The notes under the pieces: generated by a model
Told to the model about the DNA's origin: nothing
The model's input: only the letters and a program-made list of their open reading frames with translations
Databases searched by the model: none
In this document: positions 4,978 through 22,220 of the stretch, piece after piece
How the letters are laid out: every line of letters starts with the position of its first letter
Numbering within the stretch: the first letter of the stretch is position 1
Program-made: the position numbers and the translations under genes
Assembly (NCBI GenBank): GCA_964515035.1
Contig: CAZEUO010000006.1
Location: forward strand, 10,103-74,102
Length of the DNA: 64,000 bases
Direction: 5' to 3'
DNA from: an uncultured Planctomycetales bacterium
GTDB lineage: Bacteria; Omnitrophota; Gorgyraeia; Zapsychrales; CAZBRU01

Positions 4978-4980
4978 ATT

Positions 4981-7452
4981 ATGGGAAGAAAAAAAATAAT
5001 TACTAAAACCACTGAAGCCGCTGCAGTTACATCGTATAAGCATAAAGATAAACGTTCGCGTATTCCCACACAGGAAGAATCCGTTAAGCTTTCTGTCCGG
5101 GAAAAACAACCGGTTAAGAAAAGATACGAATATGAACCTTCACTGGATCCTCAGCTTGTTTGGTCTGGGAAGAAAGAATCCGGATCCGAACTGTCTGTTT
5201 CAACAATACCGATTTATGTTCAGGAAAAGATTGCACCAGAAGCTATCATCGCTCGTTTAAAGCAAGGATCCAAAGACGAAGCGCAATACACATTGTTTGG
5301 TGAAACAACCCAACAGCAGTTTGATAAGGCTGTAGAATTTTATAAGCACGAAGACAATTGGCAAAACCGCATGATTTTGGGAGATAGTCTTTTGGTAATG
5401 AACAGTTTGCTTGAAAAAGAAGGTATGCGTGGCAAGGTACAAACTATTTACATTGACCCGCCTTATGGAATTAAATTCGGTTCCAATTGGCAGACATCAA
5501 CTCGGAAACGTGAAGTGAAGGATAATAAAGTTGAAGATTTGGTTCGCCAGCCAGAGCAAATAAAAGCATTCCGTGATACGTGGGAGTTGGGTATTCATTC
5601 GTATCTTTCTTACTTACGTGATCGTTTAATTACCGCCAGAGAGCTCTTGACAGAAAGTGGATCATGTTTTGTACAAATTTCGGATGAAAATTTACACTTA
5701 ATTAGAAATCTAATGGATGAAGTTTTAGGGAATGAGAATTTTGTAAGTTTAATTACATTCAAAAAAACGAATCCACTAGGTGCTAGTGGATTAGGGGCAG
5801 TTTCTGATTATTTGATATGGTATGCTCGCGATATAAAACGATATAAGTTTAGAAGAATTCTTCTTGAGAAGCATCTTGGTGTTGGTGGAGTTAGTGGTTA
5901 TTCATGGATTGAGTTGCCCAATGGTAACCGACGAAGGCTTACAAGTGATGAATTTAACAATATTGATAAATTACCTAAAGATTGGCGTATTTTTGCGCCT
6001 ACAAAATTAACAGCCGCTGGGTTAACTCCTAGCTGTGTTTACCCTTTTGAATATGAAGGCGTTCGATTTACCCCAAAACAAGGATCAAGTTGGAGAACTA
6101 ATGCAGCAGGCATGGAAAAGTTAATTAGTTTGAAGAGGCTGATACGACTTGGCGATTCAATTTATCAAGTAATGTATTTTGATGATTATCCTGTTACAGA
6201 ATTGACAAATCTTTGGGACGATACTCGGGGAGAAATGGACAAGTGTTATGTTGTGCAAACTGCTACTAGAGTTATAGAGCGCTGTATACTTATGACTACT
6301 GATCCTGGCGACCTTGTTTTTGATCCAACCTGTGGTTCCGGTACAACCGCTTATGTCTCCGAGCAGTGGGGAAGGCGATGGATTACGACCGATACTTCAC
6401 GCGTTGCCCTTGCATTGGCACGTACTCGACTTATGGCCGCTAAATTTTCCTATTACACATTGAAAGATCAAAGTAATGTGCGTTCAGGATTTGAATATAA
6501 AATTGTTCCACATGTAACTTTGAAATCTTTAGCAAATGATGAGGAATCAGAACAAGAAGTCCTTTACGATCAGCCATTCGAAGATAAAGGGAAGGTTCGG
6601 GTATCCGGGCCATTTACAGTCGAGTCTCTTTCTCCCCATCGAGTTTCTGATGCGCAAGAAATGATTTCATCTGAACGATTTGCTGAAACTGTGGTTACCA
6701 ATCTTCTCAAAGCAGGGGTACAAACTGGCGAGAAAGACGCACGCTTAGAGTTCATCAACTTAGATATTTTACCTAGTGGTCCTGAAGTTCAGGCTATTGG
6801 CGAATACAAAACAAAAGATGGATTAAAAAAAATAGCTGTTGCCATTGGTCCTGAATTCGGAAGCGTTGATGATGATTTTATCCGGGATGCGGCTAAAGTA
6901 GCCAAAAAATTTGCCAATCTTTTGGTGGTCGCAGCAACGTCATTTGATGCTTCGGCATTTACCGAGCCTTCACAGATAAATGGTTTACAGATAATGAAAG
7001 TTAAAATTAATCCTGATCTTTCGATGGGTGATTTACTTAAGAAAACGGGCTCAGGCAATCTTTTCTTGGCTTTCGGCGAACCAGAAGTCAGAGTGAAACA
7101 GACAAAAGATGGATTGGTCGTTGAAATTTTGGGCGTGGATGTTTATGACCCAGTCAAAGGTCAAATCCGTTCAAGTGGAGCGGGGAATCCTGAGCATGAC
7201 ATTGCTACCTGGTTTATTGATGCCAATTACAGTGGCGAAGCATTTTTTGTAACGCATGCTTATTTTCTTGGAGAAGACAAACCCTACGAAAAATTAAAGA
7301 AAGCCCTTAAAGCAGATATAAATGAGGACGCGTGGGATACGCTGTATTCAACCGTATCTCGCCCCTTTGCCAAACCCAAAACCGGCAAAATCGCTGTTAA
7401 AGTAATTAATCATTACGGGGATGAAGTAATGAAAGTAATAGAGGTTAAATAA
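4981..7452 (+). CDS. mod: beta-class N6-adenine (or N4-C) DNA methyltransferase, Type III Mod-like, with a ~340 aa C-terminal extension
   Basis: Motif IV IYIDPPYGIKFGSNWQ precedes motif I LVFDPTCGSGTTAYV...GRRWITTD. This order is the beta-class arrangement of Type III Mod. About 290 aa of TRD-like sequence separate them. A long extra C-terminal region follows motif I. Confidence 0.75.
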   Translation: MGRKKIITKTTEAAAVTSYKHKDKRSRIPTQEESVKLSVREKQPVKKRYEYEPSLDPQLVWSGKKESGSELSVSTIPIYVQEKIAPEAIIARLKQGSKDEAQYTLFGETTQQQFDKAVEFYKHEDNWQNRMILGDSLLVMNSLLEKEGMRGKVQTIYIDPPYGIKFGSNWQTSTRKREVKDNKVEDLVRQPEQIKAFRDTWELGIHSYLSYLRDRLITARELLTESGSCFVQISDENLHLIRNLMDEVLGNENFVSLITFKKTNPLGASGLGAVSDYLIWYARDIKRYKFRRILLEKHLGVGGVSGYSWIELPNGNRRRLTSDEFNNIDKLPKDWRIFAPTKLTAAGLTPSCVYPFEYEGVRFTPKQGSSWRTNAAGMEKLISLKRLIRLGDSIYQVMYFDDYPVTELTNLWDDTRGEMDKCYVVQTATRVIERCILMTTDPGDLVFDPTCGSGTTAYVSEQWGRRWITTDTSRVALALARTRLMAAKFSYYTLKDQSNVRSGFEYKIVPHVTLKSLANDEESEQEVLYDQPFEDKGKVRVSGPFTVESLSPHRVSDAQEMISSERFAETVVTNLLKAGVQTGEKDARLEFINLDILPSGPEVQAIGEYKTKDGLKKIAVAIGPEFGSVDDDFIRDAAKVAKKFANLLVVAATSFDASAFTEPSQINGLQIMKVKINPDLSMGDLLKKTGSGNLFLAFGEPEVRVKQTKDGLVVEILGVDVYDPVKGQIRSSGAGNPEHDIATWFIDANYSGEAFFVTHAYFLGEDKPYEKLKKALKADINEDAWDTLYSTVSRPFAKPKTGKIAVKVINHYGDEVMKVIEVK

Positions 7453-7458
7453 ATAATT

Positions 7459-10400
7459 ATGAGTTCAAAATATCCAAGAGGATCCGAATGGCGCAAGTGG
7501 GATTTGCATGCACAAACCGTTCTAGATGATGGTTATATTTCGATAGGGCAATACTTAGAAGAAATAAAAGGAATCTCTCCCGAAAAATATAATGAATTGA
7601 TCAGGAGAGTTGGAACGGAAGATTTGGTGAAGAAATATGATTCCAAAGAGTATTTTTTTACAGATACTCAAGATGATGAAAAAAGAAGAGTAGAAAATTA
7701 TTCAAAATTATTTCTTAATTTTGTCGATATCTTTAATGCCCATATCGGAGTAATTGGAATTACTGATCATAATTATGAAAATCAATATTTATTAGATTGC
7801 TTGGTCCACAAGGCCAGTGATTTTAATTTTCAAGTTGTCCCCGGTGTTGAAATAAATGTTCAGGGTGTTCATATGCTTGTTTATTTTGGCGACAAACCAT
7901 ACCAGAAGACAACATATGCAGAAGGAATCAAAGCATTCTTGAGTAAAATTAATGTTACAAACAGAAAGACGAACAATATCTTAACGGTTTGCAATAAAAG
8001 CTATACGGATGTTATTAATGAAATAAAGGAACTGGAAGCAATCTTAGTTTATCCTCATTGCAATTCTTCCAATGGACTTTTCCAGGAAAGAGGCAAAACT
8101 GACCGAACACATCTCGCTGATCAATTCAATCACCAGAGTTTTAATATTTTACAGTCTAAAAATAAAGAATCCGCAGACACAGTTGTTTCCTATGTCAAAG
8201 CTAGAACAGAATTAAAATCGGGGTTGGTTTTTACTCTTGGAAGCGATGCACGCGCGTTAAAAGATATTTTAAAGCCAGATAAAGATGAGAATTATTGTTG
8301 GATTAAGGCTGATCCAACATTTGAAGGGTTAAAGCAAATCATTTATGAGCCAGATGCGAGAGTTTTTATTGGTAAAGAGCCTGAAATAGAGACTCGCGTT
8401 AGGAGCAATAGAACTAGATATATAAAATCATTATGTATCGGACAGGCTGACAAATATAACGAAGCGCATGGTATATGGTTTAAAGATGAATCCATAGAAT
8501 TTAGTAAGGAACTTGTTGCCATTATTGGGAATAAGGGAAGCGGAAAAAGTGCCATCACCGATATTATTGGGTTGCTTGGTAATAGTCATAATCAGAAATA
8601 TGGGAAACGAGATGGAAGTCGCGAAGAATTATTTTCCTTTCTAAATAAGCAAAAATTCCTAAAGCCGGGTTATGCATCGAATTTTAAGGCAGCATTGCAT
8701 TGGTATGATGGAGAGCCTGCGAAAATGGAATTAGATAAAGAAGTTGATGATAACATTCCAGAGCGCGTTGAGTATTTACCACAAAAATATCTTGAGAAAA
8801 TTTGTGCAAACATAGACGATGATGAATTTCGTGGAAGATTAAACGAGGTTATTTTTGAATATGTTAAAGAGAAATTTGATTATAAAAACCTAGAAGATTT
8901 AATTAAATATTTAACAAGTCAAGCTGATGAGGATATTAAGAATTCAAAGTTCTCTCTTCATGAAAAGAACGAAGAAATTGTTTCTGTAGAGAAAAAACTT
9001 ACAACAGATTACAAAAAGGAAATCGAAGAAAAGATTAAGATTAAAGAAGAAGAAGTTACTGCTCATAAGAAAAATAAACCTCCTCAGAAGAATGAACCAC
9101 CTCGTAACAGCGAAGCCGCAGCTACAGGAGCAGCTCAGATTGCAGATATTGAAACAAAAATCAATGACTTGATTAAGCACATTGATGGTCTTGAAGAGGA
9201 GCAAACAGCTGTTTCCAAGCAGCTTGAAGATCTTAAGCACGCAAAAGAGGCTATATCGAGGCAAGAAACAGTTTTAAAAGATTTGAAGTCTAAATATAAA
9301 TCATTTTTTGACAGTCTTGGTTTAGCGCTTGATGAGGTAATTAAGGTTTCTTTTCATTATGAGAAAATTGAAAAAATCGTAAATGGAAAAAAGACACGTT
9401 TGCAAGAAATTGAAGGTCTTTTGAGAACTGCTGAGGAAATAAATGAACTTGAAGACGATATAGTAATAAATGATGCACAAAGTAAGAGTTTAAGATTACA
9501 GTTAATCCAATTAGAAAATGGAAAGAAAAATATTATTGATCAATTAAGCAAGCCGGAACAAGAATACCAGGAATACTTGAGACAAAATTCAAAATGGGAG
9601 GCTCGCCAAAAAGAACTTGTTGGGGACGAACAGGCTCCGGTGGTTGACACGTCAAATTGGTTAAAACAAGAATTGAAAAATATTGCTGACGCGTATACTC
9701 AGAATCGGGATAGCTTAAGAAAAGAAAGAAAGAAAATCTTGAAGGACATCTTTAGTAAAAAGCAGGCATTAGTTTCGTTTTATAATTCAGTCAAAGAATC
9801 GATTGACAAAGAAATTGGAAAATATAGTGAAGATTTGGGAAGTTACAATATTGCCATTGAAGCCGGATTACGTTTTAATACGTCGTTTTATGACGAGTTC
9901 TTTAAATATATAAATCAAGGTATAAAAGGGAGTTTCTTTGGCACCGAGGATGGTAGAGGCATATTAAAAAACCTTTGTGAAGGTGTTCAGGGTTGGCAAG
10001 ATGAAAAAGATGTTGTTTCAATATTAGAAGACATAACCAATCACTTGGACAATGACCAGAGAAAAGAAGTTTTATCCGATGATCAGGCTAGGGATATTTT
10101 TAAGCAAATGAAGCAAAAGAAAGACCCTGTGGAGTTTTATGATTATCTTTTCGGGTTAGAATTTTTGCAAACAAAATATGATCTAAAAGTTGACGGTAAA
10201 GATCTTAGTCAATTATCTGCTGGAGAAAGAGGGGGATTATTGTTGATATTTTACTTAATGTTAGATAAGAAAGAGATCCCTTTGATTATCGATCAGCCAG
10301 AAGATAATCTTGATAATAAAAGTGTGTATGAAATCCTTGTTACATTTTTAAAACGAGCGAAAAAAAGACGACAAATTATTATGGTTACGCATAACCCCAA

Positions 10401-10596
10401 CTTAGCGGTTGTCGCTGATGCCGAACAAATTATTCACGTCTCAATCAATAAAAAGAATAAGAATGATTTCGATTATTATTCTGGATCAATTGAAAATTTG
10501 GAAATTAATAATCGGGTTGTCGAAATTCTTGAAGGAACTATGCCTGCTTTCAATAATCGAAGATTAAAATATCGTAAATATTCTAATGATAATTAA
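7459..10596 (+). CDS. fusion protein: N-terminal PHP (polymerase/histidinol phosphatase-like) phosphoesterase domain + Rad50/SbcC/SMC-like ABC ATPase with long internal coiled coil
   Basis: PHP-like blocks: WDLHAQT, IGITDHNYEN, VVPGVEINVQGVHM, VYPHCNSSNG, FTLGSDARA. Walker A IIGNKGSGKSAITD. A ~280 aa K/E-rich coiled coil follows. ABC signature LSAGERGG, Walker B PLIIDQPEDNLD, H-loop IMVTHNP. Starts 7 nt after the mod stop. Confidence 0.6.
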   Translation: MSSKYPRGSEWRKWDLHAQTVLDDGYISIGQYLEEIKGISPEKYNELIRRVGTEDLVKKYDSKEYFFTDTQDDEKRRVENYSKLFLNFVDIFNAHIGVIGITDHNYENQYLLDCLVHKASDFNFQVVPGVEINVQGVHMLVYFGDKPYQKTTYAEGIKAFLSKINVTNRKTNNILTVCNKSYTDVINEIKELEAILVYPHCNSSNGLFQERGKTDRTHLADQFNHQSFNILQSKNKESADTVVSYVKARTELKSGLVFTLGSDARALKDILKPDKDENYCWIKADPTFEGLKQIIYEPDARVFIGKEPEIETRVRSNRTRYIKSLCIGQADKYNEAHGIWFKDESIEFSKELVAIIGNKGSGKSAITDIIGLLGNSHNQKYGKRDGSREELFSFLNKQKFLKPGYASNFKAALHWYDGEPAKMELDKEVDDNIPERVEYLPQKYLEKICANIDDDEFRGRLNEVIFEYVKEKFDYKNLEDLIKYLTSQADEDIKNSKFSLHEKNEEIVSVEKKLTTDYKKEIEEKIKIKEEEVTAHKKNKPPQKNEPPRNSEAAATGAAQIADIETKINDLIKHIDGLEEEQTAVSKQLEDLKHAKEAISRQETVLKDLKSKYKSFFDSLGLALDEVIKVSFHYEKIEKIVNGKKTRLQEIEGLLRTAEEINELEDDIVINDAQSKSLRLQLIQLENGKKNIIDQLSKPEQEYQEYLRQNSKWEARQKELVGDEQAPVVDTSNWLKQELKNIADAYTQNRDSLRKERKKILKDIFSKKQALVSFYNSVKESIDKEIGKYSEDLGSYNIAIEAGLRFNTSFYDEFFKYINQGIKGSFFGTEDGRGILKNLCEGVQGWQDEKDVVSILEDITNHLDNDQRKEVLSDDQARDIFKQMKQKKDPVEFYDYLFGLEFLQTKYDLKVDGKDLSQLSAGERGGLLLIFYLMLDKKEIPLIIDQPEDNLDNKSVYEILVTFLKRAKKRRQIIMVTHNPNLAVVADAEQIIHVSINKKNKNDFDYYSGSIENLEINNRVVEILEGTMPAFNNRRLKYRKYSNDN

Positions 10597-10621
10597 TGTA
10601 AGCTAGTTTCTTCCCGCAATC

Positions 10622-11119
10622 GTGGAAATTGAAATGTTTTCGAGAAAAAGAATAGAAGATTATCTTAAGAAAATTGAAAAGAGGTTTTTTATCGCTCCAC
10701 GCCAAAAGTTTAGTTTCTCCGAAAATTGGTTTCAGGAAATACCCTTGGAAGCTGGTATTTACGGTATTTTTAATCAAAATAAACTCATCTATATAGGGGA
10801 AACCGGTTCTCTTCGCGGAAGGATGCGTGATTTGGGAAGAACGGTTAATCATCAATTCCGAAGAAGTGTTGGGAAAAATATGTTCTCTCGTGTAAAAGGA
10901 TTCGAGGAAGCGAGCAGTAGAAAGAAATTTCCTCTTAACATTGAAAAAAAGCTAAATAAATGGATGGAACAAAAACTTGAAATCGCTGTTTTGCCAATTT
11001 TGTTTGGAAGAAAGGAAATTGAAGAATATATCTGTAAAGAATATAAACCAAAATGCAATACACGAGTTAAAAGGGAATGTAGAAAGATAAATGAAAATCA
11101 TCGAAATTTATCACTGTAA
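10622..11119 (+). CDS. GIY-YIG nuclease domain protein (standalone, 165 aa)
   Basis: GIYGIFNQNKLIYIGETGSLRGRMRDL matches the GIY...YIG...R core. Only a 25 nt gap follows the ATPase gene, with no terminator. Start may be GTG at 10622 or ATG at 10634. Confidence 0.6.
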   Translation: MEIEMFSRKRIEDYLKKIEKRFFIAPRQKFSFSENWFQEIPLEAGIYGIFNQNKLIYIGETGSLRGRMRDLGRTVNHQFRRSVGKNMFSRVKGFEEASSRKKFPLNIEKKLNKWMEQKLEIAVLPILFGRKEIEEYICKEYKPKCNTRVKRECRKINENHRNLSL

Positions 11120-11516
11120 TGTTAAAACTAAGCGGAAGCTGCCAATGTTTCTTTCAAGAGTTCGCGCCGGGTTTCCGTCCCCCGCAGATGATTACCTCGA
11201 CAAGAAACTGGACTTAAACGAACATCTGATTAAGCATCCCGCCGCTACTTTTTTTGTCAAAGTCAAAGGCGATTCGATGATAAAGGCGGGAATTAATTCG
11301 GGAGATATTCTGGTAGTTGATCGTTCGCTTGAACCAAAAGATAAGAAAATTGTTGTGGCGATACTAAATGGAGAGTTTACGGTCAAGCGAGTGCGAAAGA
11401 TGAAGGACAAATTATATCTGGTTTCAGAAAATGACGATTATCTGCCTATTGAAATCAAAGATGACGCGGAGTTTGAGATTTGGGGAGTAGTTGCCCATGT
11501 TATCCACTCAGTCTGA
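11091..11516 (+). CDS. umuD: UmuD (S24 LexA-like self-cleaving peptidase, TLS polymerase V accessory subunit)
   Basis: RAGFPSPADDYL...KVKGDSMIKAGINSGDILVVD aligns to the E. coli UmuD cleavage site (CG/FPSP) and the catalytic Ser (GDSM). Lys is in the C-terminal part. The full-length N-terminal arm is present if the start is 11091. Confidence 0.75.
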   Translation: MKIIEIYHCNVKTKRKLPMFLSRVRAGFPSPADDYLDKKLDLNEHLIKHPAATFFVKVKGDSMIKAGINSGDILVVDRSLEPKDKKIVVAILNGEFTVKRVRKMKDKLYLVSENDDYLPIEIKDDAEFEIWGVVAHVIHSV

Positions 11517-12810
11517 CAAAAAAGTTTTTGCCTTAGTTGACTGCAATAGTTTTTACGTTTCCTGCGAAAAAGTTTTTCATCCTTCCGTAAACAACAAGCC
11601 AGTTGTTGTGCTTTCCAATAATGACGGTTGCGCTATCTCACGCTCGAATGAAGCCAAGCGGATCGGTATTGGCATGGGTGCTCCTATATTCAAATGTCAG
11701 GATATTGTTAAACAACATGATGTGAAGGTTTTCTCAGCTAATTTTGTCCTCTATGGCGATATGTCTAATCGGGTTATGGCTGTGCTTTCGAATTTTACAC
11801 CGAATCTTGAAATCTATTCGATTGATGAAGCTTTCCTTTTATTAAACGGCTTTGAACACTTGAATCTTGAGGACTATGCACGCAAGATTAAGGGAGAGGT
11901 TAAAAAACAAACCGGAATCCCTGTCTCAATTGGTGTTGCGCCGACCAAAACTTTGGCGAAAGTTGCTAATCATTATGCCAAAGACCATCCGGAAGCAAAT
12001 GGGGTATTTACCTTAATGGATGATGATAAGATTGAGCGTATCTTGTCACAAACACCGGTTAGAGAGATTTGGGGCATCGGTAAAGAAAAGGCCATATTCT
12101 TGGAACGACACGGCATAAAAACAGCGTTTGAATTACGAAATACCAGTGATGAATGGATCAAGAAACATCTGACTATCGTTACCCTACGCACGGTTTGGGA
12201 ATTAAGAGGAACCCCGTGTTTGTCTCTGGAAAAGGTGCAACCCAATAAGAAAGCCATTGCAACAACCAGAACTTTTGGTTATGAAGTTAATTGTTTGGCG
12301 GAAATGGAAGAGGCGGTCGCGGCGTATGTCAGCCGTTCGGCAGAGAAGTTAAGAAAACAAAAATCACTGGCCAGTTACATTCAAGTGTTTATTGAGACTA
12401 ATCCTTTCAAAGACACGCCTTACTATCGGAATTCAGCCGGAACGGATGTTAATCCACCAACGGCCTACACACCAAGATTGATTGAAGTTGCTAAGGAGCT
12501 TTTAAAACGTATTTACCGAGATGGCTTACGCTATAAAAGCTGTGGAGTCTTTTTAATGAATCTTTGCCCTCAAACGAACGAACAGGATTATTTGTTTGAA
12601 GAAAAATATCAAGGAAGCTCACGAGAAAGGCTCATGCAGATTATGGATCGTTATAATCGCGGTGCTAATAGCGGAAAACTTTTTATGGCCGCTGAAGGGT
12701 TGGGTAAGCCATGGTTTATGAAACAAGCGCATAAATCCAAGCGATTCACAACACGGTGGGACGAACTGTTAACAATAAACCTTGAAAGGAATAAAAATGC
12801 CACCAAGTGA
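11491..12810 (+). CDS. umuC: UmuC / Y-family translesion DNA polymerase V catalytic subunit
   Basis: N-terminus FALVDCNSFYVSCEKVFHP...PVVVLSNNDGCAI is near-canonical UmuC. Overlaps umuD as in umuDC operons. Confidence 0.85.
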   Translation: MPMLSTQSDKKVFALVDCNSFYVSCEKVFHPSVNNKPVVVLSNNDGCAISRSNEAKRIGIGMGAPIFKCQDIVKQHDVKVFSANFVLYGDMSNRVMAVLSNFTPNLEIYSIDEAFLLLNGFEHLNLEDYARKIKGEVKKQTGIPVSIGVAPTKTLAKVANHYAKDHPEANGVFTLMDDDKIERILSQTPVREIWGIGKEKAIFLERHGIKTAFELRNTSDEWIKKHLTIVTLRTVWELRGTPCLSLEKVQPNKKAIATTRTFGYEVNCLAEMEEAVAAYVSRSAEKLRKQKSLASYIQVFIETNPFKDTPYYRNSAGTDVNPPTAYTPRLIEVAKELLKRIYRDGLRYKSCGVFLMNLCPQTNEQDYLFEEKYQGSSRERLMQIMDRYNRGANSGKLFMAAEGLGKPWFMKQAHKSKRFTTRWDELLTINLERNKNATK

Positions 12811-13126
12811 GAGGTCAATGCAAATTGCTGGAAAATTCTCTGAATATGCAAAATCTGGTGACGATGCTTTAATACAAAATTTTACGGAAAATGAAATTAA
12901 GTTAACATTAATACAATATGCGCAAGATAAGAGATTTCCTCATTACAGTGCAATGGAAATGCAATTGCAAAAACTACAAGAACAAAAAAGAGAGTTATTA
13001 AGCCAGAATGAAAGAGAAGCAGAAAGGAAAGAAGGCTATAAAAATGGATTGATTACAGGCATTATTAGCGGTGTAATTGGTGGGATTATTTTAGCTGTAA
13101 TTTTGAAATTATTGGGATTAGGATAA
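12782..13126 (+). CDS. hypothetical small protein with C-terminal transmembrane helix
   Basis: 114 aa with coiled-coil-like middle and hydrophobic C-terminus GLITGIISGVIGGIILAVILKLLGLG. No recognisable family. Confidence 0.3.
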   Translation: MKGIKMPPSERSMQIAGKFSEYAKSGDDALIQNFTENEIKLTLIQYAQDKRFPHYSAMEMQLQKLQEQKRELLSQNEREAERKEGYKNGLITGIISGVIGGIILAVILKLLGLG

Positions 13127-13128
13127 TT

Positions 13129-13791
13129 ATGTGCGGACGATATTCACAAACAAAATCCAAGCAGGATATTAAAAAGCGGTTCAATCTTAAGAAAGTCCCG
13201 GATGAAATGGGACCCCTTTTTAATATTGCGCCAGATTCAAATGTGCCAGTTATCTTAAATGAATCATCAGATGAAATAACTTTGGCAAGATGGGGGCTTG
13301 TGCCTTCATGGTCAAAAGAGGAGGAGTCACCTTATAGTATGATAAACGCAAGGGCAGAGACAATCTTAGAAAAGCCTTCCTACAAAAGGCTGATTAAAAA
13401 TAAACGCTGTTTGATCATTGCCGATTCGTTCTACGAATGGAAAAAAGTAAAAGGTAAAAAATTCCCTCACAGGATCATGCTTGAAAGCGAAGACTTATTC
13501 GCTTTTGCAGGATTATGGGATCTCTGGGAAGGAAATGGCAATTCCTTAATTAGCTGTTCCATTATTACTACGACCCCCAATAAGCTTTGTGTTACGATTC
13601 ATGACAGGATGCCAGTCATTTTGCCAAGAGAAAGAGAGAAAGACTGGCTGTCTGATATTACCGTTGAGGATGCCATTAAACTTCTTCAACCCTGCGCCGA
13701 TGGCATGAAATGCTGTGAAATTTCCTTAAAAATCAACAATCCTCAAAACAATTCTCCCGACGTGATTTTACCGTTCAAAAGCCAACCTTAA
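13129..13791 (+). CDS. SOS-response-associated peptidase (SRAP/YedK family), abasic-site DNA-protein crosslinking protein
   Basis: Begins MCGRYS (invariant Cys2 nucleophile of SRAP). About 220 aa, with the WGLVPSW motif. Confidence 0.85.
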   Translation: MCGRYSQTKSKQDIKKRFNLKKVPDEMGPLFNIAPDSNVPVILNESSDEITLARWGLVPSWSKEEESPYSMINARAETILEKPSYKRLIKNKRCLIIADSFYEWKKVKGKKFPHRIMLESEDLFAFAGLWDLWEGNGNSLISCSIITTTPNKLCVTIHDRMPVILPREREKDWLSDITVEDAIKLLQPCADGMKCCEISLKINNPQNNSPDVILPFKSQP

Positions 13792-13801
13792 AAATTTCAC
13801 C

Positions 13802-13830
13802 TTGACAAAATCGATTATATTGATTATACT
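13802..13830 (+). promoter_or_regulatory. sigma70-like promoter (TTGACA-17-TATACT) upstream of the T4SS/transfer gene block
   Basis: TTGACA aaatcgattatattgat TATACT read directly. Followed by a 10-nt inverted repeat cgtaaaaatc/gatttttacg at about 13868..13910. Confidence 0.35.
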
Positions 13831-13946
13831 TCAAATGTAATTGATGAATAATCAACACTCGTTCCCCGCGTAAAAATCCCTTACCGTAGTAACCTAGCCT
13901 GATTTTTACGTTCCCTGTAGAAAAGTTCCCCCAAGGACTGCTATAC

Positions 13947-14687
13947 ATGGATCGTATCCCTCAAAAATTACTGATTCTTAAGTTTATTGTCGAACAAGGC
14001 GTTGTAACCTTAGAGGACATTAAACAATTCCTGAATATTCCCAATGATTCCGGTTCTATCCGGGTTTCTCTTTATCAGCTGGGAATCTCTCACATAAAAT
14101 ACGGAAAAATACCTCATGGTGTCTGGTATGTCAGTAATTCACAGTCTATTGAATTGCTAAGGACATATTTCAGGGAATTACCGCAATTTCCCATCCGCAG
14201 GATTCATCTCCATTTGGTCCCGCACTCTTTGGGGATGAACCGAATCCGCATTATTCTACAAAAAAGCCAAAACATAAAAGTTAGCGCGTGGTGGTCAGAA
14301 CATTATATCCGCGCCCTTACCCCGGATATGCGTTTTGGGATTTTGATGTCTAAAATCCCGGATGCTATCTTCTGGCGTGATCGTTGTAACGGAACGCAAC
14401 AAAAATTCTTTTTGGAATACGAAAGAACCTTAAAAAGTAAAGCCAGATATATGGACCTTTTTCGATATTACTCTCAACGTAACGACGTATTAAACCGTAA
14501 TGTTATTTATATTTGCGAAAACGATACGATCAAAACCGAACTGGAAAAAATTGAACAATTTTTAGTCAAGTCAGGAAGGATGGAAAGTACCGGGCTTTAT
14601 TTCCAATTTATTACTTTTGAAAAATTCTGCCTTCAATATTCAATCCAAAACCCAATTCAAAAGGAGGAAGAGGTATGCGTAAATTAA
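13947..14687 (+). CDS. hypothetical winged-helix-like protein, first gene of the transfer block; possible relaxosome/replication-relaxation-type component
   Basis: 246 aa. N-terminal region resembles wHTH. Contains the His-rich segment RRIHLHLVPH (HUH-like). No confident family assignment. Confidence 0.3.
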   Translation: MDRIPQKLLILKFIVEQGVVTLEDIKQFLNIPNDSGSIRVSLYQLGISHIKYGKIPHGVWYVSNSQSIELLRTYFRELPQFPIRRIHLHLVPHSLGMNRIRIILQKSQNIKVSAWWSEHYIRALTPDMRFGILMSKIPDAIFWRDRCNGTQQKFFLEYERTLKSKARYMDLFRYYSQRNDVLNRNVIYICENDTIKTELEKIEQFLVKSGRMESTGLYFQFITFEKFCLQYSIQNPIQKEEEVCVN

Positions 14688-14968
14688 ACAAATTGTTTAA
14701 TTCAAGGATAGGCAAGTGTTTGATGATTTTGGGTCTGTTATGTGTTTTAACCACATCTGCCTGGGCCGACCTTGAAAGCGGCATGGAAGAGCTTCAGTCA
14801 AAGATATTCAACATTTCGACGCCTTTGGCGATCATCTTCCTGATTATTGCCGCATGGCAAAAGGCAATGGGCAATGACACGCTTTTTTTCGCGTCTCTCG
14901 TGGGGACGATCATCATGTTTGCCGCGCCTCAGATTGTGCAATTCATAAGTGCGTCATTTGGAGGTTAA
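14675..14968 (+). CDS. VirB2/TrbC-like T4SS pilin
   Basis: 97 aa with signal-like N-terminus and two hydrophobic segments (LAIIFLIIAAW; LVGTIIMFAAPQIV). Sits immediately before VirB3/B4. Confidence 0.5.
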   Translation: MRKLNKLFNSRIGKCLMILGLLCVLTTSAWADLESGMEELQSKIFNISTPLAIIFLIIAAWQKAMGNDTLFFASLVGTIIMFAAPQIVQFISASFGG

Positions 14969-14971
14969 CTT

Positions 14972-17779
14972 ATGCGTAATTTCAGCGAACGATGCTTAAG
15001 GAATCTGCAAGATAGGATGATAATCCTCGGCTTTGAAGGTTGGGATATCTTTATCGTGATTGGCACAGCTTTAATTCTGCAATCCTTCCATATCCATAAT
15101 CTTGTTCTTTGGTTGACAATCGGCGCAACCGGAGGTTTCCTCTATTTTATCAAACGGGGTAAACCGCCGAATGCCACGGAACATTTTGTTGACTGGTTTT
15201 TAAAGGAAAAACGTTTTACGGCAATTCCGCAAATCATCGGCGAATCATTAAAAGGAAGGCCGTTAGATATCAAACTCAATTCATTGCAAACCTTATTGCC
15301 CTATGGGCACTTGGAAGATAACTATTTAATATTCTGCGACGATTCCCTTTCGGTCAGTTATGAAATCAGCTGTCCGCCACTGGATAATCTTTCCAATGAC
15401 GAACTAATTGCCTATTCCCAGCGTATCGAAACTTTTTTAAACAGTTTAACCGATAAGGCTACTTACCAGATTTTCTTTACTCTCGATAGCAATTATCAAA
15501 AGGAAATTGAGGAGCATAAAGCCATTAAGTCGACGCACCCCTTGATTAAGATCATGCACAGCCAAAGAATCGAGAAATTCGAAGAACTGCAAAAACAGAA
15601 AGTCTTAAGGCGAAGGCGTTGTTTTCTATTTGTTAATTACGCCGGTTCTAAGGCTAATCAGAAAAAAATAAGCCTATTAAATAAGTTTAAACAAAGCCGG
15701 AAACTGATCAATGAAGATGTCGATCTCTTGAAACGTGACCTGACCTTTATCCTTCAGCCCATCGAGGACAGCATAAAGGCGGCTGGATTTAGTTTTAAGC
15801 GGTTGTCGCAAGATGAAATCATGGCCTTGATTTACAAATATTTGAATCCGGATCGAGAGAAACAAGGTTTGCTATGCGCCAGGCTAAAGGACAGCCAAAT
15901 GTTTGGCCGGCAGGTTTGCTGTTCAGACTTATTGATAGATGAAAACAAAGGGGAATACCTGCATTTTGGCGGCTTTTACCATAAATACATTACCTTAAAA
16001 GTCCTTCCGGAAACAACCGAGCCCGGGATGTTGGCCTATCTGTCCCAACTATCTTTCTCGGAATTCGATGTGATTGTCAATTTTGAGGCACCGGCCAAAG
16101 AATGGGGGCGAAAGAAAATCGAATCCATGCGAAAGCGCGAATACGGCAACATGGTCGGCCTCTTTAATATCGTCAATAAAGACGCCCAAACAAAAGTCGC
16201 CCAGTATGAAACGCTTCTTGAGGAAACCCAACAAAATAATCAAAAACTTTTCCGTATGCAGCTGACTCTGCATGTTTACGGTGAGGAAATGGAGGATGTT
16301 AAGAAAAAGACTGTTGAAGTTATCCGTATATTTTCCAGCCTTAACGGCGCGGAAATGCATGATGAACGCTGGGGCGCGGTTAAACCGATATTTCTAGGGA
16401 CCTTGCCCGGATGGACCAAAGAATCATCGAGGTGGTTATTGTTGAAATCCCTTCATTTGGCGGATTTTTTGCCGTTTTTCTCCGAATTTAAAGGGAGCGG
16501 ATCGGCACAATGCCTATTCTTTAATACAACTCAAGGCTTGGCCTCTTATGATCCGTTTTCGGAGGAATTGACCGCTTTTAATACCGTAGTTGTAGGCGCA
16601 TCGGGGAGCGGAAAAAGCTTCACCATCAATCAAATTATCAATCAATACAGCAAAAACGACCCCGTGGAAATATTTATCGATATTGGTGGTTCATACAAGC
16701 GTCAAGTCATCTTAAAAAACGGCGAGTATATCAACTTAGGCCTAAAAGAGAAATTCACCATCAATCTTTTTGATTTATCAAAGAATAAGCGGTTTAGAGA
16801 TTTTAACGAAGAGGAACAAAACGAAATCCTTATCATTAAGACCAAAACCATTGCCCAAATGATGGGTGGGCTGGCTCGATTTAAAGAATCCGACCAAATA
16901 GTGGAAGATTTTATCTTTCGAAGCGTTGCCTTTCTGTATGAAAGAGTTGACTATCCCATCTTAAGCGATCTTAAGGAAGTTTTGAAATCCGTATCCCAAA
17001 ACAACAAACAATTACAGCCGTTTCTTGAGCCGGTTATCGGGTTGTTGGGAATCTGGTTTAAAGGCGGGCAGTATGGCAATTACACCGATGGCCCTTCGAC
17101 AATATCCTTAGATAACAGCGTTATTTGTTTTGATTTAAAAGGCCTTAGTCAATTCGAAAGGCTTCAGGCGGTCATGCTGACTATCGTAACAAACTTTATT
17201 TGGGGAAAAATCATGAGTGAGCCCGGGCGCCGCAAATTCGTTATTTTCGATGAGTGCTGGAAACTACTTAGTACCCCGGAAGCGGCCACTTTTATCGCCG
17301 AATGCTACCGAACCTTTCGAAAATACGGCGCAGGGGCCATTTCGGTCACTCAATCTTTAAGCGACTTTTTGGGATGCGGCTTGGAAGATGCCATACTGGG
17401 CAATTCCAATACGCGATTTATTCTGCGCCAAAATTCTGCTCCCACGGTTGAACAGATTATTAAATACTTCAACTTTAATGAACAGGAGAGAAGGCTTGTT
17501 GAATCTCTACAGATTAAAAAAGGTGAGTATTCGGAAGTCTTTTTCTCGCAATCCAAGGAGTTAAAAAACATCAGCGCCAAGATGGTGATCTGGCCTACGC
17601 CGATTGAATATTGGGTTGCGACAACCGATTCGAGAGATTTGGGCCATTATGAAAATACCAGACAGCGGTTTCCGAAACTGAACTTGTACGAATCATTACA
17701 AAAATGCGCAAAAGAATTTCCGCATGGTGTTGGAAATTCAACATTCATTCAAGAAGGGGGGCCAAATGCGTTCATTTAA
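14972..17779 (+). CDS. virB4: VirB3::VirB4 fusion, T4SS ATPase (TrbE/CagE family)
   Basis: N-terminal two-TM VirB3-like segment. Walker A VVVGASGSGKSF. Walker B FVIFDECWKLL. 935 aa. Confidence 0.85.
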   Translation: MRNFSERCLRNLQDRMIILGFEGWDIFIVIGTALILQSFHIHNLVLWLTIGATGGFLYFIKRGKPPNATEHFVDWFLKEKRFTAIPQIIGESLKGRPLDIKLNSLQTLLPYGHLEDNYLIFCDDSLSVSYEISCPPLDNLSNDELIAYSQRIETFLNSLTDKATYQIFFTLDSNYQKEIEEHKAIKSTHPLIKIMHSQRIEKFEELQKQKVLRRRRCFLFVNYAGSKANQKKISLLNKFKQSRKLINEDVDLLKRDLTFILQPIEDSIKAAGFSFKRLSQDEIMALIYKYLNPDREKQGLLCARLKDSQMFGRQVCCSDLLIDENKGEYLHFGGFYHKYITLKVLPETTEPGMLAYLSQLSFSEFDVIVNFEAPAKEWGRKKIESMRKREYGNMVGLFNIVNKDAQTKVAQYETLLEETQQNNQKLFRMQLTLHVYGEEMEDVKKKTVEVIRIFSSLNGAEMHDERWGAVKPIFLGTLPGWTKESSRWLLLKSLHLADFLPFFSEFKGSGSAQCLFFNTTQGLASYDPFSEELTAFNTVVVGASGSGKSFTINQIINQYSKNDPVEIFIDIGGSYKRQVILKNGEYINLGLKEKFTINLFDLSKNKRFRDFNEEEQNEILIIKTKTIAQMMGGLARFKESDQIVEDFIFRSVAFLYERVDYPILSDLKEVLKSVSQNNKQLQPFLEPVIGLLGIWFKGGQYGNYTDGPSTISLDNSVICFDLKGLSQFERLQAVMLTIVTNFIWGKIMSEPGRRKFVIFDECWKLLSTPEAATFIAECYRTFRKYGAGAISVTQSLSDFLGCGLEDAILGNSNTRFILRQNSAPTVEQIIKYFNFNEQERRLVESLQIKKGEYSEVFFSQSKELKNISAKMVIWPTPIEYWVATTDSRDLGHYENTRQRFPKLNLYESLQKCAKEFPHGVGNSTFIQEGGPNAFI

Positions 17780-18173
17780 ATATTTGTTATTAGCCTTAAT
17801 ACTTCCGGTACTTATTGGTTGTGCTAACAAACTGGCTTACGTTTCAACCGGAAGCCTCATTGGAGCCGGGGGCGGGTATGCCATTGACCGTGACAGCAAG
17901 GACGCTGCTATTGGCGGGTTAGTTGGGGGAACGACCGGAGCCATACTAGCAGACATCCATAAAAAAAGTGAAAATAAAAAGTACCAAGATGGTTACGATC
18001 AAGGGTATACCCAAGCCCAGCTTGAAATTGCTAAAAGTAACTGGGATGAAAATACCGGCAAACAAAAGAAGGATGTTACTTCAAAATCTTATGAGCGGAT
18101 TAAAATCCCTAAAAAAGAAGTCAATGATGTGCTCTATGATTCGCATTATGAAACGCTGGAGGTGTACAAATGA
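17766..18173 (+). CDS. lipoprotein with glycine-zipper motif (possible VirB7-like / T4SS-associated)
   Basis: Lipobox LIGC after signal peptide. GSLIGAGGGYAID...GGLVGGTTGAILA glycine zipper. The upstream ORF start (17724) overlaps virB4, so the 17766 ATG is preferred. Confidence 0.45.
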   Translation: MRSFKYLLLALILPVLIGCANKLAYVSTGSLIGAGGGYAIDRDSKDAAIGGLVGGTTGAILADIHKKSENKKYQDGYDQGYTQAQLEIAKSNWDENTGKQKKDVTSKSYERIKIPKKEVNDVLYDSHYETLEVYK

Positions 18174-18895
18174 AAAAACTTATGGTTTTTGCGATTATTC
18201 TCATGTTGAGCCCGCGGCCTGCGTGGGCTGATTCGACCTGGGCGGTCTTACAGCAAACCAGCATCCAGACAGCTGAGCATCTAAAAAGGGTTCAGGAAGC
18301 GATTAAGATGGTTCAGCTGCTTCAAACCCAGGTTCACGATGTCCAGGATCTTCTTAAATTGGCAGTCAGGGCCAGTGAAGGCTTGGAGGGCGTTGAGTTT
18401 ATAAGCGATTTCAGGAACCTGGCGATTGAAACCAACGACCTGATTGGAGAAATTCGAGAGTATATCGAATATGACAAACCCATTGGAGAAGAATGGCTGA
18501 ATCTCTTTGGAAAAATCGGGAACTGGATCGAAGACTCAAATGAAATCTTTAAAAATATTAAAATGTCCGATTCGGTCAATGCCAGAAGTTTTAATATTGC
18601 CGATAGCTACCATGACAAATATCAGGAAAATTCAGAATACGCTGAGCAATTAGTTGCGAATTCGAAAACAGTCAATGAAAAAGGCGCGTTAAAACAGATA
18701 GCGGAAGAGATGGGCCACCTCATGCAGATGCAAAATCAAGAAATTTATTTACTCTCCGAGATCCTCAGATCGCAAAGTGTCGAATACTCCAACGAAAATC
18801 TGAAGCGCAAGGAAGATGCCATCAAATTTGAGCAGGAAAATAAAGGGATAAAGCGTTTTATAAGCATGTCAATCGACGACCAATTCGAGTTATAG
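18170..18895 (+). CDS. secreted alpha-helical protein, VirB5/TrbJ-like candidate
   Basis: Signal peptide MKKLMVFAIILMLSPRPAWA. Coiled-coil-rich. Position matches VirB5 between B4 and B6. Confidence 0.35.
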   Translation: MKKLMVFAIILMLSPRPAWADSTWAVLQQTSIQTAEHLKRVQEAIKMVQLLQTQVHDVQDLLKLAVRASEGLEGVEFISDFRNLAIETNDLIGEIREYIEYDKPIGEEWLNLFGKIGNWIEDSNEIFKNIKMSDSVNARSFNIADSYHDKYQENSEYAEQLVANSKTVNEKGALKQIAEEMGHLMQMQNQEIYLLSEILRSQSVEYSNENLKRKEDAIKFEQENKGIKRFISMSIDDQFEL

Positions 18896-18899
18896 AGCT

Positions 18900-19913
18900 A
18901 TGGACTTTGTTATTAGCATTGTCAAAAGTGATTTATGGGGAATAATCCATACTGGACGCTATTTGTTGAGTGGCCTTTTCCTTTTTGCGGTATTTGTTCA
19001 TTTCCTGGGCATACTCGCTCATCAAACAAGCTGGTCGTCCTTACTGATGCGATTGGTGATCGGCTTTATATTGCTTCAAAACTATGTTTGGATCATGGAC
19101 ACGACCAAAGATATTGTCGTAGGCTTAGATAAAACGATTACCCCGCAACAGGACTTTTCCAAACAGTATGCCGAGATGTCTGAAAATTTAAGGGTGGAAT
19201 ATGAGCAAAATGTCCAACAGAGTATCACTGAACGAATTCTAAACTTTGGTAAAAACACGATCCACAGTTTGGTGGTAAACTTTTCGTTTATTTTTTATGC
19301 CATAGTTTCTCGTATTATGGAGGCTATTCGTTACTCGATTGCGGGTATTTTGTATAAATTGGGGCCGATTTTAATTCCTTTAATCCTATTCAATTCGACA
19401 AAGCGTGTTTTGGGCGGTTGGTTCACCAGCTATATTTGCGTGCTGTCTTGGCCGATTTTATGGCATATCACGTTGTCGATTGCCGTTGCCATAAGCGAAC
19501 GTTTTGGCATAACCGGAGATGGGATCGAATATTTCGTTGCCATTAATTTTGCGGTGGGTTTTGTCCTGATATTTTCACCGATGATTATTACGAGTTTGGC
19601 TGCCGGTATCGGCGCGGGGGCAGCGGCTTCGCTTGCTGGGGCGTTTGCGACAAAAACATTCTTAGATAGATTTCAGCAAGCCGGGCGTATAGGAGCGGCG
19701 GGAGTGACAGGCGCGGTAAGCACTGGCATAAGAACTGTTCAAAGCATTTCTCAGGCCATTCCGGTTAACGCATTGTTAAGCGAAAGGTTTAAAAATATCA
19801 TGTCCTTTGCCGGAAAGCCTAAAGCGGATACTCCGGGACACGATATTAAATCATCCGGCAAAAACCCTTTTGATTCAATCAATAAAGCAATGAAAGGAAA
19901 GAAAGATGAGTGA
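18900..19913 (+). CDS. VirB6/TrbL-like polytopic inner-membrane T4SS protein
   Basis: Multiple TM helices and a Gly/Ala-rich C-terminal segment. Correct synteny position. Confidence 0.5.
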   Translation: MDFVISIVKSDLWGIIHTGRYLLSGLFLFAVFVHFLGILAHQTSWSSLLMRLVIGFILLQNYVWIMDTTKDIVVGLDKTITPQQDFSKQYAEMSENLRVEYEQNVQQSITERILNFGKNTIHSLVVNFSFIFYAIVSRIMEAIRYSIAGILYKLGPILIPLILFNSTKRVLGGWFTSYICVLSWPILWHITLSIAVAISERFGITGDGIEYFVAINFAVGFVLIFSPMIITSLAAGIGAGAAASLAGAFATKTFLDRFQQAGRIGAAGVTGAVSTGIRTVQSISQAIPVNALLSERFKNIMSFAGKPKADTPGHDIKSSGKNPFDSINKAMKGKKDE

Positions 19914-20502
19914 GCTTGCCTTTAACCGAATTATTCTGGAAAAAAATAACTATGTTTTATCCGTCCTGGCCGTTATTTCCTTATCGATTAATTTGTTTTT
20001 AACCACGATGCTGGCTTTTTCGATCAATAAAAAGCCACTTATGGTTTATGAGGATTCGGGACAGGTGATTTCTCTTAACAATCGAGAATTTAAATTAGAC
20101 GAAAAGATTTTGGAAGGGTTCGTCCATTTGATTACCAAAGAATACTTAAGTTTTAGCCCGTCCTCATTGCCGGTGCAAATTGAGGCGATAAAGCATTATC
20201 TAACGGACAGCCCAAGAAACGCGATTCTTGATTCCTATAAAAAGAATGAGAAGAAAATTCAGGAAGAGAATGTTTTTCAACAATTTACCGTTCAAGAAAT
20301 TAAAATCACCAAAAAAAACAGTCCGTATTTAGTCGAAGTTGATGGCATAAAAACGGTTTACGCCAATGGCAACAGCAAAAATATTGCCGCGACTTATGCA
20401 TTGGAAATCGAACGGATCAAGCAGGCACAAGATAATCCTTATGGATTAATTGTTTCAAAGATTATTGAGAAACCACAACAACTAACGGAGAGCCGGAAAT
20501 GA
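19906..20502 (+). CDS. VirB8-like bitopic T4SS protein
   Basis: N-terminal TM (VLSVLAVISLSINLFLTTMLAF) followed by about 150 aa periplasmic domain. Synteny. Confidence 0.45.
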   Translation: MSELAFNRIILEKNNYVLSVLAVISLSINLFLTTMLAFSINKKPLMVYEDSGQVISLNNREFKLDEKILEGFVHLITKEYLSFSPSSLPVQIEAIKHYLTDSPRNAILDSYKKNEKKIQEENVFQQFTVQEIKITKKNSPYLVEVDGIKTVYANGNSKNIAATYALEIERIKQAQDNPYGLIVSKIIEKPQQLTESRK

Positions 20503-21311
20503 AATATATAATCATATTGTTAATTTTGCTTACCGCAGAGCCGGTTTTTGCGCTTGATGGAACAAACAGGTATTTGAGCCCTAATAAAGTCATTTATGAA
20601 GACCCTCAAGAAGATGATGTCCTCATCATCAATACAACCGTTGGTTACACAACCGTGTTGGAATTTCCCGAAAAACCCGCAATGGTATCAACCGGCGACA
20701 GCTCTCTTTTGCAAATCGAAGTGCCAAAGAATTCAAAGAGTGTCCTGTTAAAAGCCTTAAGAGACGAAGGGGAGACTAATCTCTTTGTTTTCACGCCAAG
20801 CCAGCGGTTTAATTACAAGGTCTTTATCGGCAATCAGCAGGATGTTGATTATGTCATTGATGTTCAGAAAGAATCTCTAAACAAGAAGAATCGACCTGCA
20901 CAAATTCCGATAACCCAGCTTGTAAAAATGGCACAAAACTACCGGGTTTTACGCGATTCCAAACAAATCAATGACCGGATATTCATTCAAAAGGACATAT
21001 TTACTCAATATGAGAATCCGTTCGTAAAGCTGAAAGTTATCGAAGCCTTTGCCAATAAAGCCCCTCACTATCTGGTTTTGCATTTTGTTATTTCAAATAA
21101 GCAATTAATACCTATAAACTTAAACGAGAAAATAACCAGTGTGTATGTTAACGGCCAAAAGTTTCAGCCAAATTATGTTTTGTTTGATTCCGAGAGGCTG
21201 AATGCAAAACAGGAAACGGATGCTTGGGTCATACTGGAAGGAACTCATATTTCCCTAAACAATCACTTTTCTATCGGGGTAGGTGTCTATGATAAAGAAC
21301 ATATCTTTTAA
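20499..21311 (+). CDS. VirB9/TrbG/CagX-like T4SS outer-membrane core protein
   Basis: Signal peptide and beta-rich sequence. Overlapping start/stop with neighbours (translational coupling). Confidence 0.5.
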   Translation: MKYIIILLILLTAEPVFALDGTNRYLSPNKVIYEDPQEDDVLIINTTVGYTTVLEFPEKPAMVSTGDSSLLQIEVPKNSKSVLLKALRDEGETNLFVFTPSQRFNYKVFIGNQQDVDYVIDVQKESLNKKNRPAQIPITQLVKMAQNYRVLRDSKQINDRIFIQKDIFTQYENPFVKLKVIEAFANKAPHYLVLHFVISNKQLIPINLNEKITSVYVNGQKFQPNYVLFDSERLNAKQETDAWVILEGTHISLNNHFSIGVGVYDKEHIF

Positions 21312-22206: not shown

Positions 22207-22220
22207 GGGAGGATAAATCA

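Follow-up and report, generated by a model that had tools for sequence, protein, structure and literature searches.

A divergent MOBC-type candidate relaxase heads the transfer operon of an Omnitrophota integrative element, behind a conserved control region that may contain its origin of transfer

Which enzyme prepares a conjugative island for transfer when its type IV secretion system (T4SS) genes appear to lack a relaxase? This question is raised by a 64,000-nucleotide (nt) stretch of contig CAZEUO010000006.1, here called the window, whose left part holds such an island. The initial annotation singled out 13792–14687, an intergenic region followed by the gene for a 246-amino-acid (aa) protein, as a candidate origin of transfer (oriT) with either a small atypical relaxase or an accessory factor, and stated that no MOB-family relaxase was recognizable. 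That last statement does not hold, because the 246-aa protein matches the MOBC superfamily PF13814. Judged from homology and predicted fold, it is very probably the small, atypical relaxase of the island, a member of the MOBC family and not of the HUH type, and the island would therefore not be relaxase-less. The gene is the first of the operon:

13947–14687, + strand: mobC-like gene, encoding the 246-aa putative MOBC/Replic_Relax-type relaxase; first gene of the T4SS operon

We regard as likely the explanation in which the island is an integrative conjugative element (ICE) in a Candidatus Omnitrophota chromosome, with this MOBC relaxase and with its control region and oriT directly upstream. 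It is highly probable that 13792–13946 (155 nt) is a regulated promoter and leader of the transfer operon, and the chance that oriT also lies within this segment seems slightly better than even. The window was compared with related loci, among them L005–L072, and L001 adds 925 nt to the left of the window; 38 related upstream regions were used for the leader and 34 homologs (38–73% identical) for the protein alignment.

The 246-aa protein matches Pfam Replic_Relax (PF13814; E 3.2e-5, aa 89–176) and NCBIfam NF041423, “MobC family replication-relaxation protein” (E 1.1e-10, aa 79–202). A small ribbon-helix-helix accessory protein (PF05713) bears the name MobC as well but has no relation to this family. 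PF13814 had been suggested in the initial annotation as the family to compare, an apt choice, and relatives bridge the distance to it. Twelve of the 34 close homologs match PF13814 themselves. A profile search of 1.84 billion representative proteins recovered a tight clade of 23 at E <= 1e-30, then a gap, then a tail of ~250-aa proteins (448 in total at E <= 1e-3); among ten relatives sampled from this next tier, seven match PF13814, five of them above its gathering score. Most homologs are unnamed in databases, and Omnitrophota genome bins are the source of nearly all relatives. CONJscan recognizes PF13814 as the MobC relaxase superfamily (PMC5357655), MOBC being one of the six classical MOB families (PMC12857230), and PF13814 members are PD-(D/E)XK proteins that usually carry a fused helix-turn-helix (HTH) domain (PMC3424549). 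Profile-to-profile comparison with hhalign aligns the family collinearly, at full length and over 214 columns, with the TraX family of pTEF1 and pAD1 (87% probability, E 3.8e-6), and with an annotated Acinetobacter plasmid MobC (94% probability, E 9e-8). These two served as comparators because the CloDF13 record (NC_002119, PLSDB) holds no intact mobC open reading frame (ORF) or annotation.

The AlphaFold model of the protein (pLDDT 90.8, pTM 0.86) bears out the winged-helix N terminus proposed in the initial annotation. An ArsR/MarR-like winged helix (aa 1–74; 13947–14168) is followed by the α-β-β-β-α-β core of PD-(D/E)XK nucleases, a domain spanning approximately aa 85–230 and containing H93, E118, P138-D139, E157, E159, and K163. 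D139 marks the beginning of the second strand, with E157 and E159 inside the third. All 34 homologs share H93, N98, R101, E118, D139 (in I-P-D-A-I-F), E157, E159, R160, K163, and R167-Y168, and of these H93, N98, E118, D139, E157, E159, K163, and R167-Y168 occupy invariant columns of the TraX family in the hhalign comparison. Family similarity, the PD-(D/E)XK fold with its active-site residues, the N-terminal HTH fusion, and linkage to coupling protein and T4SS genes, by which MOBC members are recognized, are all found here. The protein thus appears to be a divergent MOBC outlier, left unnamed by automatic annotation because its scores fall under curated cut-offs.

Gene order argues for the same role. 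The T4SS context described in the initial annotation is confirmed for VirB4/TraC and the type IV coupling protein (T4CP), and VirB6, VirB8/TraE, VirB9, and VirB10 can be added to it. The order mobC-virB2-virB4-...-T4CP-(ORF6N)-Xis-Int is kept in at least 20 Omnitrophota loci, with protein identities of 28%–77%, and none of the window’s upstream cargo genes recurs in those loci. Other loci (L028, L057/L058, L060/L061) carry only a MobC-like protein, an excisionase, an integrase, and a tRNA, without a T4SS; the window’s arrangement of integrase then tRNA is also seen in L028, L057, and L060. L028 contains an 8.8-kb element bounded by a 39-nt perfect repeat of the tRNA-Ala 5′ half (seen at 3445–3483 and 12202–12276), and its other two large proteins have no relaxase domain. 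By sequence comparison, the homolog of the 246-aa protein is the sole relaxase candidate in these small, integrase-only elements. Layouts of both ICEs and mobilizable elements are those expected for carriers of their own relaxase and so support this function.

In this element family an intact tRNA gene directly follows the integrase gene and has the same orientation. The opposite end of the L028 element is formed by a copy of the tRNA’s 5′ half, which runs as far as the anticodon loop. It is therefore the 5′ portion of the tRNA gene that integration replaces, and not the usual 3′ end.

MOBC is, to our knowledge, the least understood of the classical relaxase families, with no structure solved and no covalent intermediate seen. 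By analogy with pAD1 TraX and CloDF13 MobC, the N-terminal winged helix would bind DNA and the C-terminal nuclease (E118, PD139, E157-x-E159, K163) would nick one strand at oriT without HUH chemistry. The mobC-like gene, which heads the whole T4SS operon, would be translationally coupled to virB2.

The closest studied system is TraX of Enterococcus faecalis pAD1/pTEF1 (oriT2), the MOBC prototype, for which a relaxase function with a restriction-enzyme-type active site is described (PMC12857230, PMC5714925). TraX shares with the 246-aa protein its size (~250–260 aa), a winged helix followed by a PD-(D/E)XK nuclease, the invariant H, E, (P)D, E-x-E, K, and R-Y positions, a neighboring gene for a VirD4-type coupling protein, and a repeat-rich non-coding region directly upstream. 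The pTEF1 homolog carries the annotation “replication-relaxation family protein”, and pTEF1 itself has the type MOBC. The homology is nonetheless detected only between profiles, at 19% identity, and pAD1 is a Gram-positive pheromone plasmid with a FATA-type T4SS, whereas the window holds a tRNA-integrated ICE with a diderm-type T4SS (VirB6/8/9/10, TraV).

CloDF13 MobC and the NF041423 family, for example mobC of Acinetobacter p10SAAs470, provide the best family-level match, with the same size, the motifs H..L, vPDAv, and ELERTvK, and a gene adjacent to that for the T4CP. Identity to the Acinetobacter protein is 25%, however, and CloDF13 and the Acinetobacter plasmids are small mobilizable plasmids with MobB/T4CP only, whereas the window gene heads a complete T4SS operon in an ICE. 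PLSDB/MOB-suite types CloDF13 (L032, NC_002119) and two Acinetobacter mobC/T4CP plasmids (including L033, NZ_CP127895) as “non-mobilizable”. Streptococcal integrative mobilizable elements of IME_Class_8 (Rel_PF13814/MobC, VirD4, and integrase; PMC5357655) likewise combine a PF13814 relaxase with an integrated element and a compact relaxase-excisionase-integrase arrangement, comparable to L028, L057, and L060. They differ in using serine integrases and a T4CP; the Omnitrophota elements have tyrosine integrases that target the tRNA 5′ half, and the small ones have no T4CP.

The 155 nt in front of the mobC-like gene carry the following features:

13802–13830, + strand: sigma-70-type promoter TTGACA-17-TATACT, matching 11 of 12 positions
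13820–13834: palindrome O1 (TTGATtatacTTCAA), which differs from TTGAT-N5-ATCAA at one position and overlaps the -10 hexamer; candidate operator or binding site for the relaxase
13841–13855: palindrome O2 (TTGATgaataATCAA), perfect TTGAT-N5-ATCAA, 21 bp from O1, covering about +4 to +18 if transcription starts, as predicted, near 13837
13860–13880, + strand: direct-repeat copy 1 (CGTTCCCCGCGTAAAAATCCC), holding C-box 1, the left arm of the inverted repeat, and C-box 2
13862–13867 and 13876–13880, + strand: C-box 1 (TTCCCC) and C-box 2 (ATCCC)
13869–13878 / 13901–13910: perfect inverted repeat CGTAAAAATC-N22-GATTTTTACG with a 22-nt spacer; candidate hairpin or protein-binding palindrome
13909–13929, + strand: direct-repeat copy 2 (CGTTCCCTGTAGAAAAGTTCC), 21 nt, 71% identical to copy 1, holding C-box 3 (TTCCCT, 13911–13916)
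13926–13932, + strand: C-box 4 (TTCCCCC), followed by the Shine-Dalgarno sequence AAGGA (13933–13937)

The promoter, the inverted repeat, and the reading frame behind them are as described in the initial annotation, the promoter being the best site in a sigma-70-like scan of 12500–15500; the palindrome pair, the 21-nt direct repeat, and the four C-boxes are additions. A promoter of the form TTGAC[AT]-N16-18-TAnnnT, often with a TG-extended -10, is present in 34 of the 38 related leaders. Genes between 13792 and 26232 are separated by no further sizeable gap, so the entire transfer operon is probably transcribed from this promoter. Its surroundings are well conserved: over the 145 nt that precede the start codon, the three closest relatives (proteins 60–79% identical) have identities of 89, 78, and 77%, compared with 81, 70, and 68% for the adjacent coding DNA. 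The upstream region is more conserved than the coding sequence beside it, as befits the cis-acting region that had been proposed here.

O2 is the only perfect TTGAT-N5-ATCAA in the 64 kb, yet 24 of 100 shuffles give at least one. Perfect copies also stand upstream of the gene in L005, L006, L007, L008, L038, L039, L041, L048, L059, L062, L063, and L067, and with up to one mismatch the motif occurs 3.4 times per kb upstream of the gene versus 0.75 per kb across all loci. The position of O1 and O2 over the -10 and +1 is, as predicted from sequence, a repressor-operator geometry. The relaxase’s own winged helix is a candidate binder, in which case the operon’s first gene would be autoregulated.

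Downstream of the promoter, a conserved leader of ~110 nt is laid out as (TTCCCC-GC-GTAAAAATC) ... (GATTTTTAC)-(GTTCCCT-GTAGAAAAG-TTCCCCC). The inverted-repeat sequence is kept in the three closest relatives (L063, L041, and L059). A repeat of this kind arose in 22 of 5000 dinucleotide shuffles of the 155-nt region (0.4%), with ~17 such loci in the 64 kb, and as single-stranded DNA it is predicted to fold at -6.3 kcal/mol (z -3.1), into a putative hairpin. The stretch to its right, CCTGATTTTTACGTTCC.GT..AAAAGTTCCCCC, which includes direct-repeat copy 2, is near-invariant in relatives. In the RNA fold, AGUUC (13924–13928) pairs with GGACU (13935–13939). An exact 16-mer of the conserved leader has 16 matches in viral contigs, none of them with any island gene, and we attribute these to chance. 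The strongest C>G skew of the window lies at 13711–13830, immediately ahead of the leader, where it spans the last part of the SRAP gene together with the promoter region.

On the + strand, each leader has two to four C-rich boxes, (T/C)CCC(C); G-runs are almost absent. In relatives these boxes occupy the loops of short hairpins whose stems differ in sequence (ACCGAT/ATCGGT, CTGATT/AATCAG, GCTGAC/GTCGGC, AGCTGG/CCGGCT). Stems of at least 4 bp surround 56 of 109 C-boxes, versus 25.7 ± 4.5 with shuffled flanks, and such C-box-loop hairpins number 3.3 per kb in leaders versus 0.03 per kb elsewhere, an approximately 100-fold difference. Positions in these stems that depart from Watson-Crick pairing are G.T in 12 cases and A.C in one. 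Because the stems are strand-specific, with G.T tolerated and A.C not, the pairing belongs to a single + strand, either mRNA or + strand DNA, and not to a duplex cruciform. A third hairpin, common to one related subclade, is paired at 96.8%; U.G and U.A often replace each other in it, and in three of its pairs both partners have changed.

Across L005–L072, hairpins with TCCCC(C)A loops and covarying stems occur two to three times per leader, for example at 9857–9875 in L010, ~9855–9885 in L024, and ~9925–9945 in L013. A distant clade (43–48% identity; L012, L014, L017, L018, L019, L022, L025, L026, L027) has neither promoter, palindrome, nor C-loop layout. In front of its mobC-like gene stand a 17–24-nt inverted repeat (GTTCAAGACCACCCTCTCTC...GAGAGATGGTGGTCTTGAAC), a terminator-like hairpin (AAAGCCATCCC...GGGGTGGCTTTTT) enclosed by an outer stem, or both, and these elements might serve as another kind of oriT or as an attenuator. 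Candidates for the C-loop hairpins are an RNA leader, a site for Rho or an RNA-binding protein, or single-stranded oriT hairpins; together with the TTGAT-N5-ATCAA palindromes, the hairpin array accompanies this relaxase clade.

Does the same segment also hold oriT? An oriT must travel with its relaxase. The location is plausible because the conserved module has no sizeable non-coding DNA apart from 13792–13946, which, as in pAD1, lies upstream of the relaxase gene. In pTEF1, an oriT-type region with a 140-bp nested inverted repeat and ~6 direct repeats of 12-bp period is found just upstream of traX, and TraX binds repeats 70–120 bp from the nick site, nic (PMC12857230). The mobilizable relatives retain the same leader features as the window. 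An oriT location and a regulated promoter-leader role are compatible, not exclusive.

A more specific proposal, which we consider unlikely, is that the C-loop hairpins and TTGAT-N5-ATCAA palindromes form an undescribed oriT architecture for PD-(D/E)XK (MOBC) relaxases or, alternatively, a new cis-regulatory RNA leader of Omnitrophota conjugation operons. In the former case, the winged helix would dock on the palindromes and the nuclease would cut the single-stranded, C-rich loops of the + strand or the conserved sequence 3′ of the inverted repeat. The MOBP nic consensus is YATCCTG|Y. Likeness of GTTCC(C)TG|T in the leader to this consensus was set aside as a 5–6-nt coincidence, since no MOBP relaxase is present.

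Both the identity of the protein and the function of the region must be weighed against other explanations. Like the HUH relaxases (MOBF/P/Q/V), the 246-aa protein would be expected to nick oriT on a specific strand, and its gene heads the transfer genes; the histidine cluster IHLHLVPH, read in the initial annotation as reminiscent of HUH motifs, is indeed present (aa 86–93), with H-x-H-x3-H at aa 87–93 (H87, H89, H93). However, homologs have P, L, Y, G, or T in place of H87 and H89, and the one invariant histidine, H93, aligns with the invariant His in the first helix of the TraX-family nuclease domain. The modeled fold is PD-(D/E)XK and not the HUH β-sheet, and no HUH relaxase family is matched in Pfam or NCBIfam. 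On the conservation pattern and predicted fold we reject an HUH identity, which is scarcely credible for this protein, and keep the other half of the proposal, a small relaxase. It is improbable, though less so, that the 246-aa product acts as a winged-helix transcriptional regulator, or as a nuclease in replication or maintenance of the excised element, with a canonical relaxase encoded left of the window. PF13814 was first described under the name “replication-relaxation” and as a predicted regulator fused to an HTH, and a regulatory or replicative role has also been proposed for its members (PMC3424549). Palindromes placed over a promoter, as O1 and O2 are, would fit a repressor, and the left end of the island lies outside the window, so that a second relaxase or another oriT could lie further left. 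Several results on the protein itself also speak against a MOBC relaxase: the PF13814 score of 24.5 is 0.8 bit short of the gathering score (25.3 bits), the NF041423 score is 41.2 against a cut-off of 200 bits, and the TraX-family match stands at 87%, not above 95%. A sequence search of solved structures gave no match, with no solved MOBC structure for comparison, and Foldseek against the PDB returned nothing below E 0.04, only winged-helix and low-probability restriction-enzyme matches. Yet nuclease residues invariant in 34 of 34 homologs would be needless in a pure regulator, and linkage to T4SS and T4CP is strict in the at least 20 syntenic loci despite their differing cargo. Apart from this protein, no relaxase domain appears in the bounded 8.8-kb mobilizable element, which also encodes an excisionase and an integrase; nor did we find a second one among the window ORFs between 60 and 30762 or in the 925 nt to the left of the window. 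TraX, the characterized member of the family, is a relaxase (PMC12857230).

If the protein is a MOBC relaxase, the upstream region could still be only its promoter, operator, and 5′ leader, with oriT in the cargo or left of the window, a real possibility toward which we do not lean. The C-boxes and hairpins would then act in the mRNA, for example in Rho loading or attenuation, as targets of an RNA-binding protein or antisense RNA, or as 5′ stabilizing hairpins. All C-boxes lie downstream of the conserved -10, the pairing in relatives is strand-specific with G.U tolerated and A.C not, and the leader’s C>G skew is within the top ~1% of the window. Its + strand RNA folds better than shuffled sequences (z -2.9) and its - strand does not (z -0.7), and the distant clade has its terminator-like hairpin at the same place. 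Every conserved feature of 13792–13946 falls on the promoter or the transcribed leader, so that regulation alone could explain them, and promoter, operator, and leader functions account for the comparative signal at least as well as an oriT does. No nic site is identifiable from the sequence of the segment, and its repeats (10-nt inverted repeat, two palindromes, 21-nt direct repeat, C-boxes) are unlike those of pAD1/pTEF1. The window-type inverted repeat shows no compensatory change in a covariation test that rested on four sequences only, a one-sided change in L059 breaks one of its pairs, and the window’s own leader has four C-boxes but no clear C-loop hairpin of at least 5 bp. Against a purely regulatory leader, Shine-Dalgarno occlusion does not exceed that of shuffled controls (mean pairing 0.59 versus 0.62, higher in only 13 of 38 leaders), although this control kept the last 20 nt of the leader fixed and is insensitive to a local hairpin. 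Rfam 15 gave only two chance-level matches on 13600–14100 (E 1.2 and 5.7), both on the - strand, and no family match for the leader. G.T pairs are tolerated in single-stranded DNA too, so the transferred strand could fold alike. An oriT in this segment, beside a regulatory role with which it is compatible, would sit in the sole sizeable non-coding part of the module, at the place where MOBC oriT regions of pAD1/pTEF1 lie relative to traX.

Behind the mobC-like gene, the transfer genes run without interruption to the coupling protein, followed by the integration module and the right end of the island:

14675–24211, + strand: remainder of the T4SS operon, uninterrupted
from 14675, + strand: VirB2/TrbC-like pilin, second gene of the operon, its start overlapping the mobC-like end by 13 nt
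then, in order, + strand: VirB3-B4/TraC, glycine-zipper lipoprotein, 241-aa protein (orf241), VirB6, TraE/VirB8, VirB9, VirB10
22221–22502, + strand: TraV-like lipoprotein, between VirB10 and the coupling protein
22499–24211, + strand: TraD/VirD4-type coupling protein (T4CP)
24226–24780, + strand: ORF6N protein
24806–24988, + strand: HTH_17 excisionase-like protein, preceding the integrase
25011–26210, + strand: tyrosine integrase
26233–26306, + strand: tRNA-Met, directly after the integrase, marking the right end of the island

The 241-aa operon protein has no family match. GC content steps from ~0.39 in the island to ~0.456 on its right at ~26 kb, and the island ends at ~26.2 kb. The 5′ half of tRNA-Met reads GGGCCCATAGCTCAGGCGGTTAGAGCAACTGACTCATAA; no copy of the tRNA-Met region that could serve as the left attachment site was found in 1–25000 or in the extra 925 nt of L001. 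As host marker, the chromosomal YebC protein beside the island has named relatives at 76–82% identity only in Candidatus Omnitrophota. The cargo upstream of the transfer operon (2011–13791) comprises a Type III restriction-modification pair, a GIY-YIG protein, UmuD, UmuC, and an SRAP protein; a 1045-aa cargo protein has a C-terminal ATPase region that matches PADLOC Ppl (E 3e-23).

Some further observations concern the surroundings. All cargo genes are transcribed toward the candidate oriT, reminiscent of a plasmid leading region, an argument from orientation that is weak because every gene in the window is on the + strand. The TraV-like lipoprotein, the excisionase-like protein at 24806–24988, and a second HTH_17 protein at 1817–2014, before the restriction subunit, fall under the 100-aa limit of the ORF listing. 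The 3′ end of tRNA-Met plus 4 nt (26290–26310, GAGCCCTCCTGGGCCCAGTGA) recurs with three mismatches 114 nt downstream (26404–26424, GAGCCCTGGTGGGCCCAGTGA); this copy follows a GC-rich hairpin and may be a remnant of another integration at tRNA-Met.

With a MOBC relaxase at the head of the operon, the apparent anomaly of a T4SS island without a relaxase is removed, and most of the surprise dissolves. MOBC elements are easily missed by automatic typing. Should the C-loop hairpins and palindromes prove to be an oriT, they would give the MOBC elements of diderm bacteria their first oriT class defined by sequence, and would offer a handle on DNA processing by relaxases without a known covalent intermediate. 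The compact 246-aa member, with its confident model and short conserved upstream region, makes a tractable pair for nicking and binding studies. Taken together, these results suggest that Omnitrophota ICEs and small mobilizable elements use a divergent MOBC relaxase that lies just below curated thresholds, and that such elements would be scored as relaxase-less or non-mobilizable by automatic pipelines.

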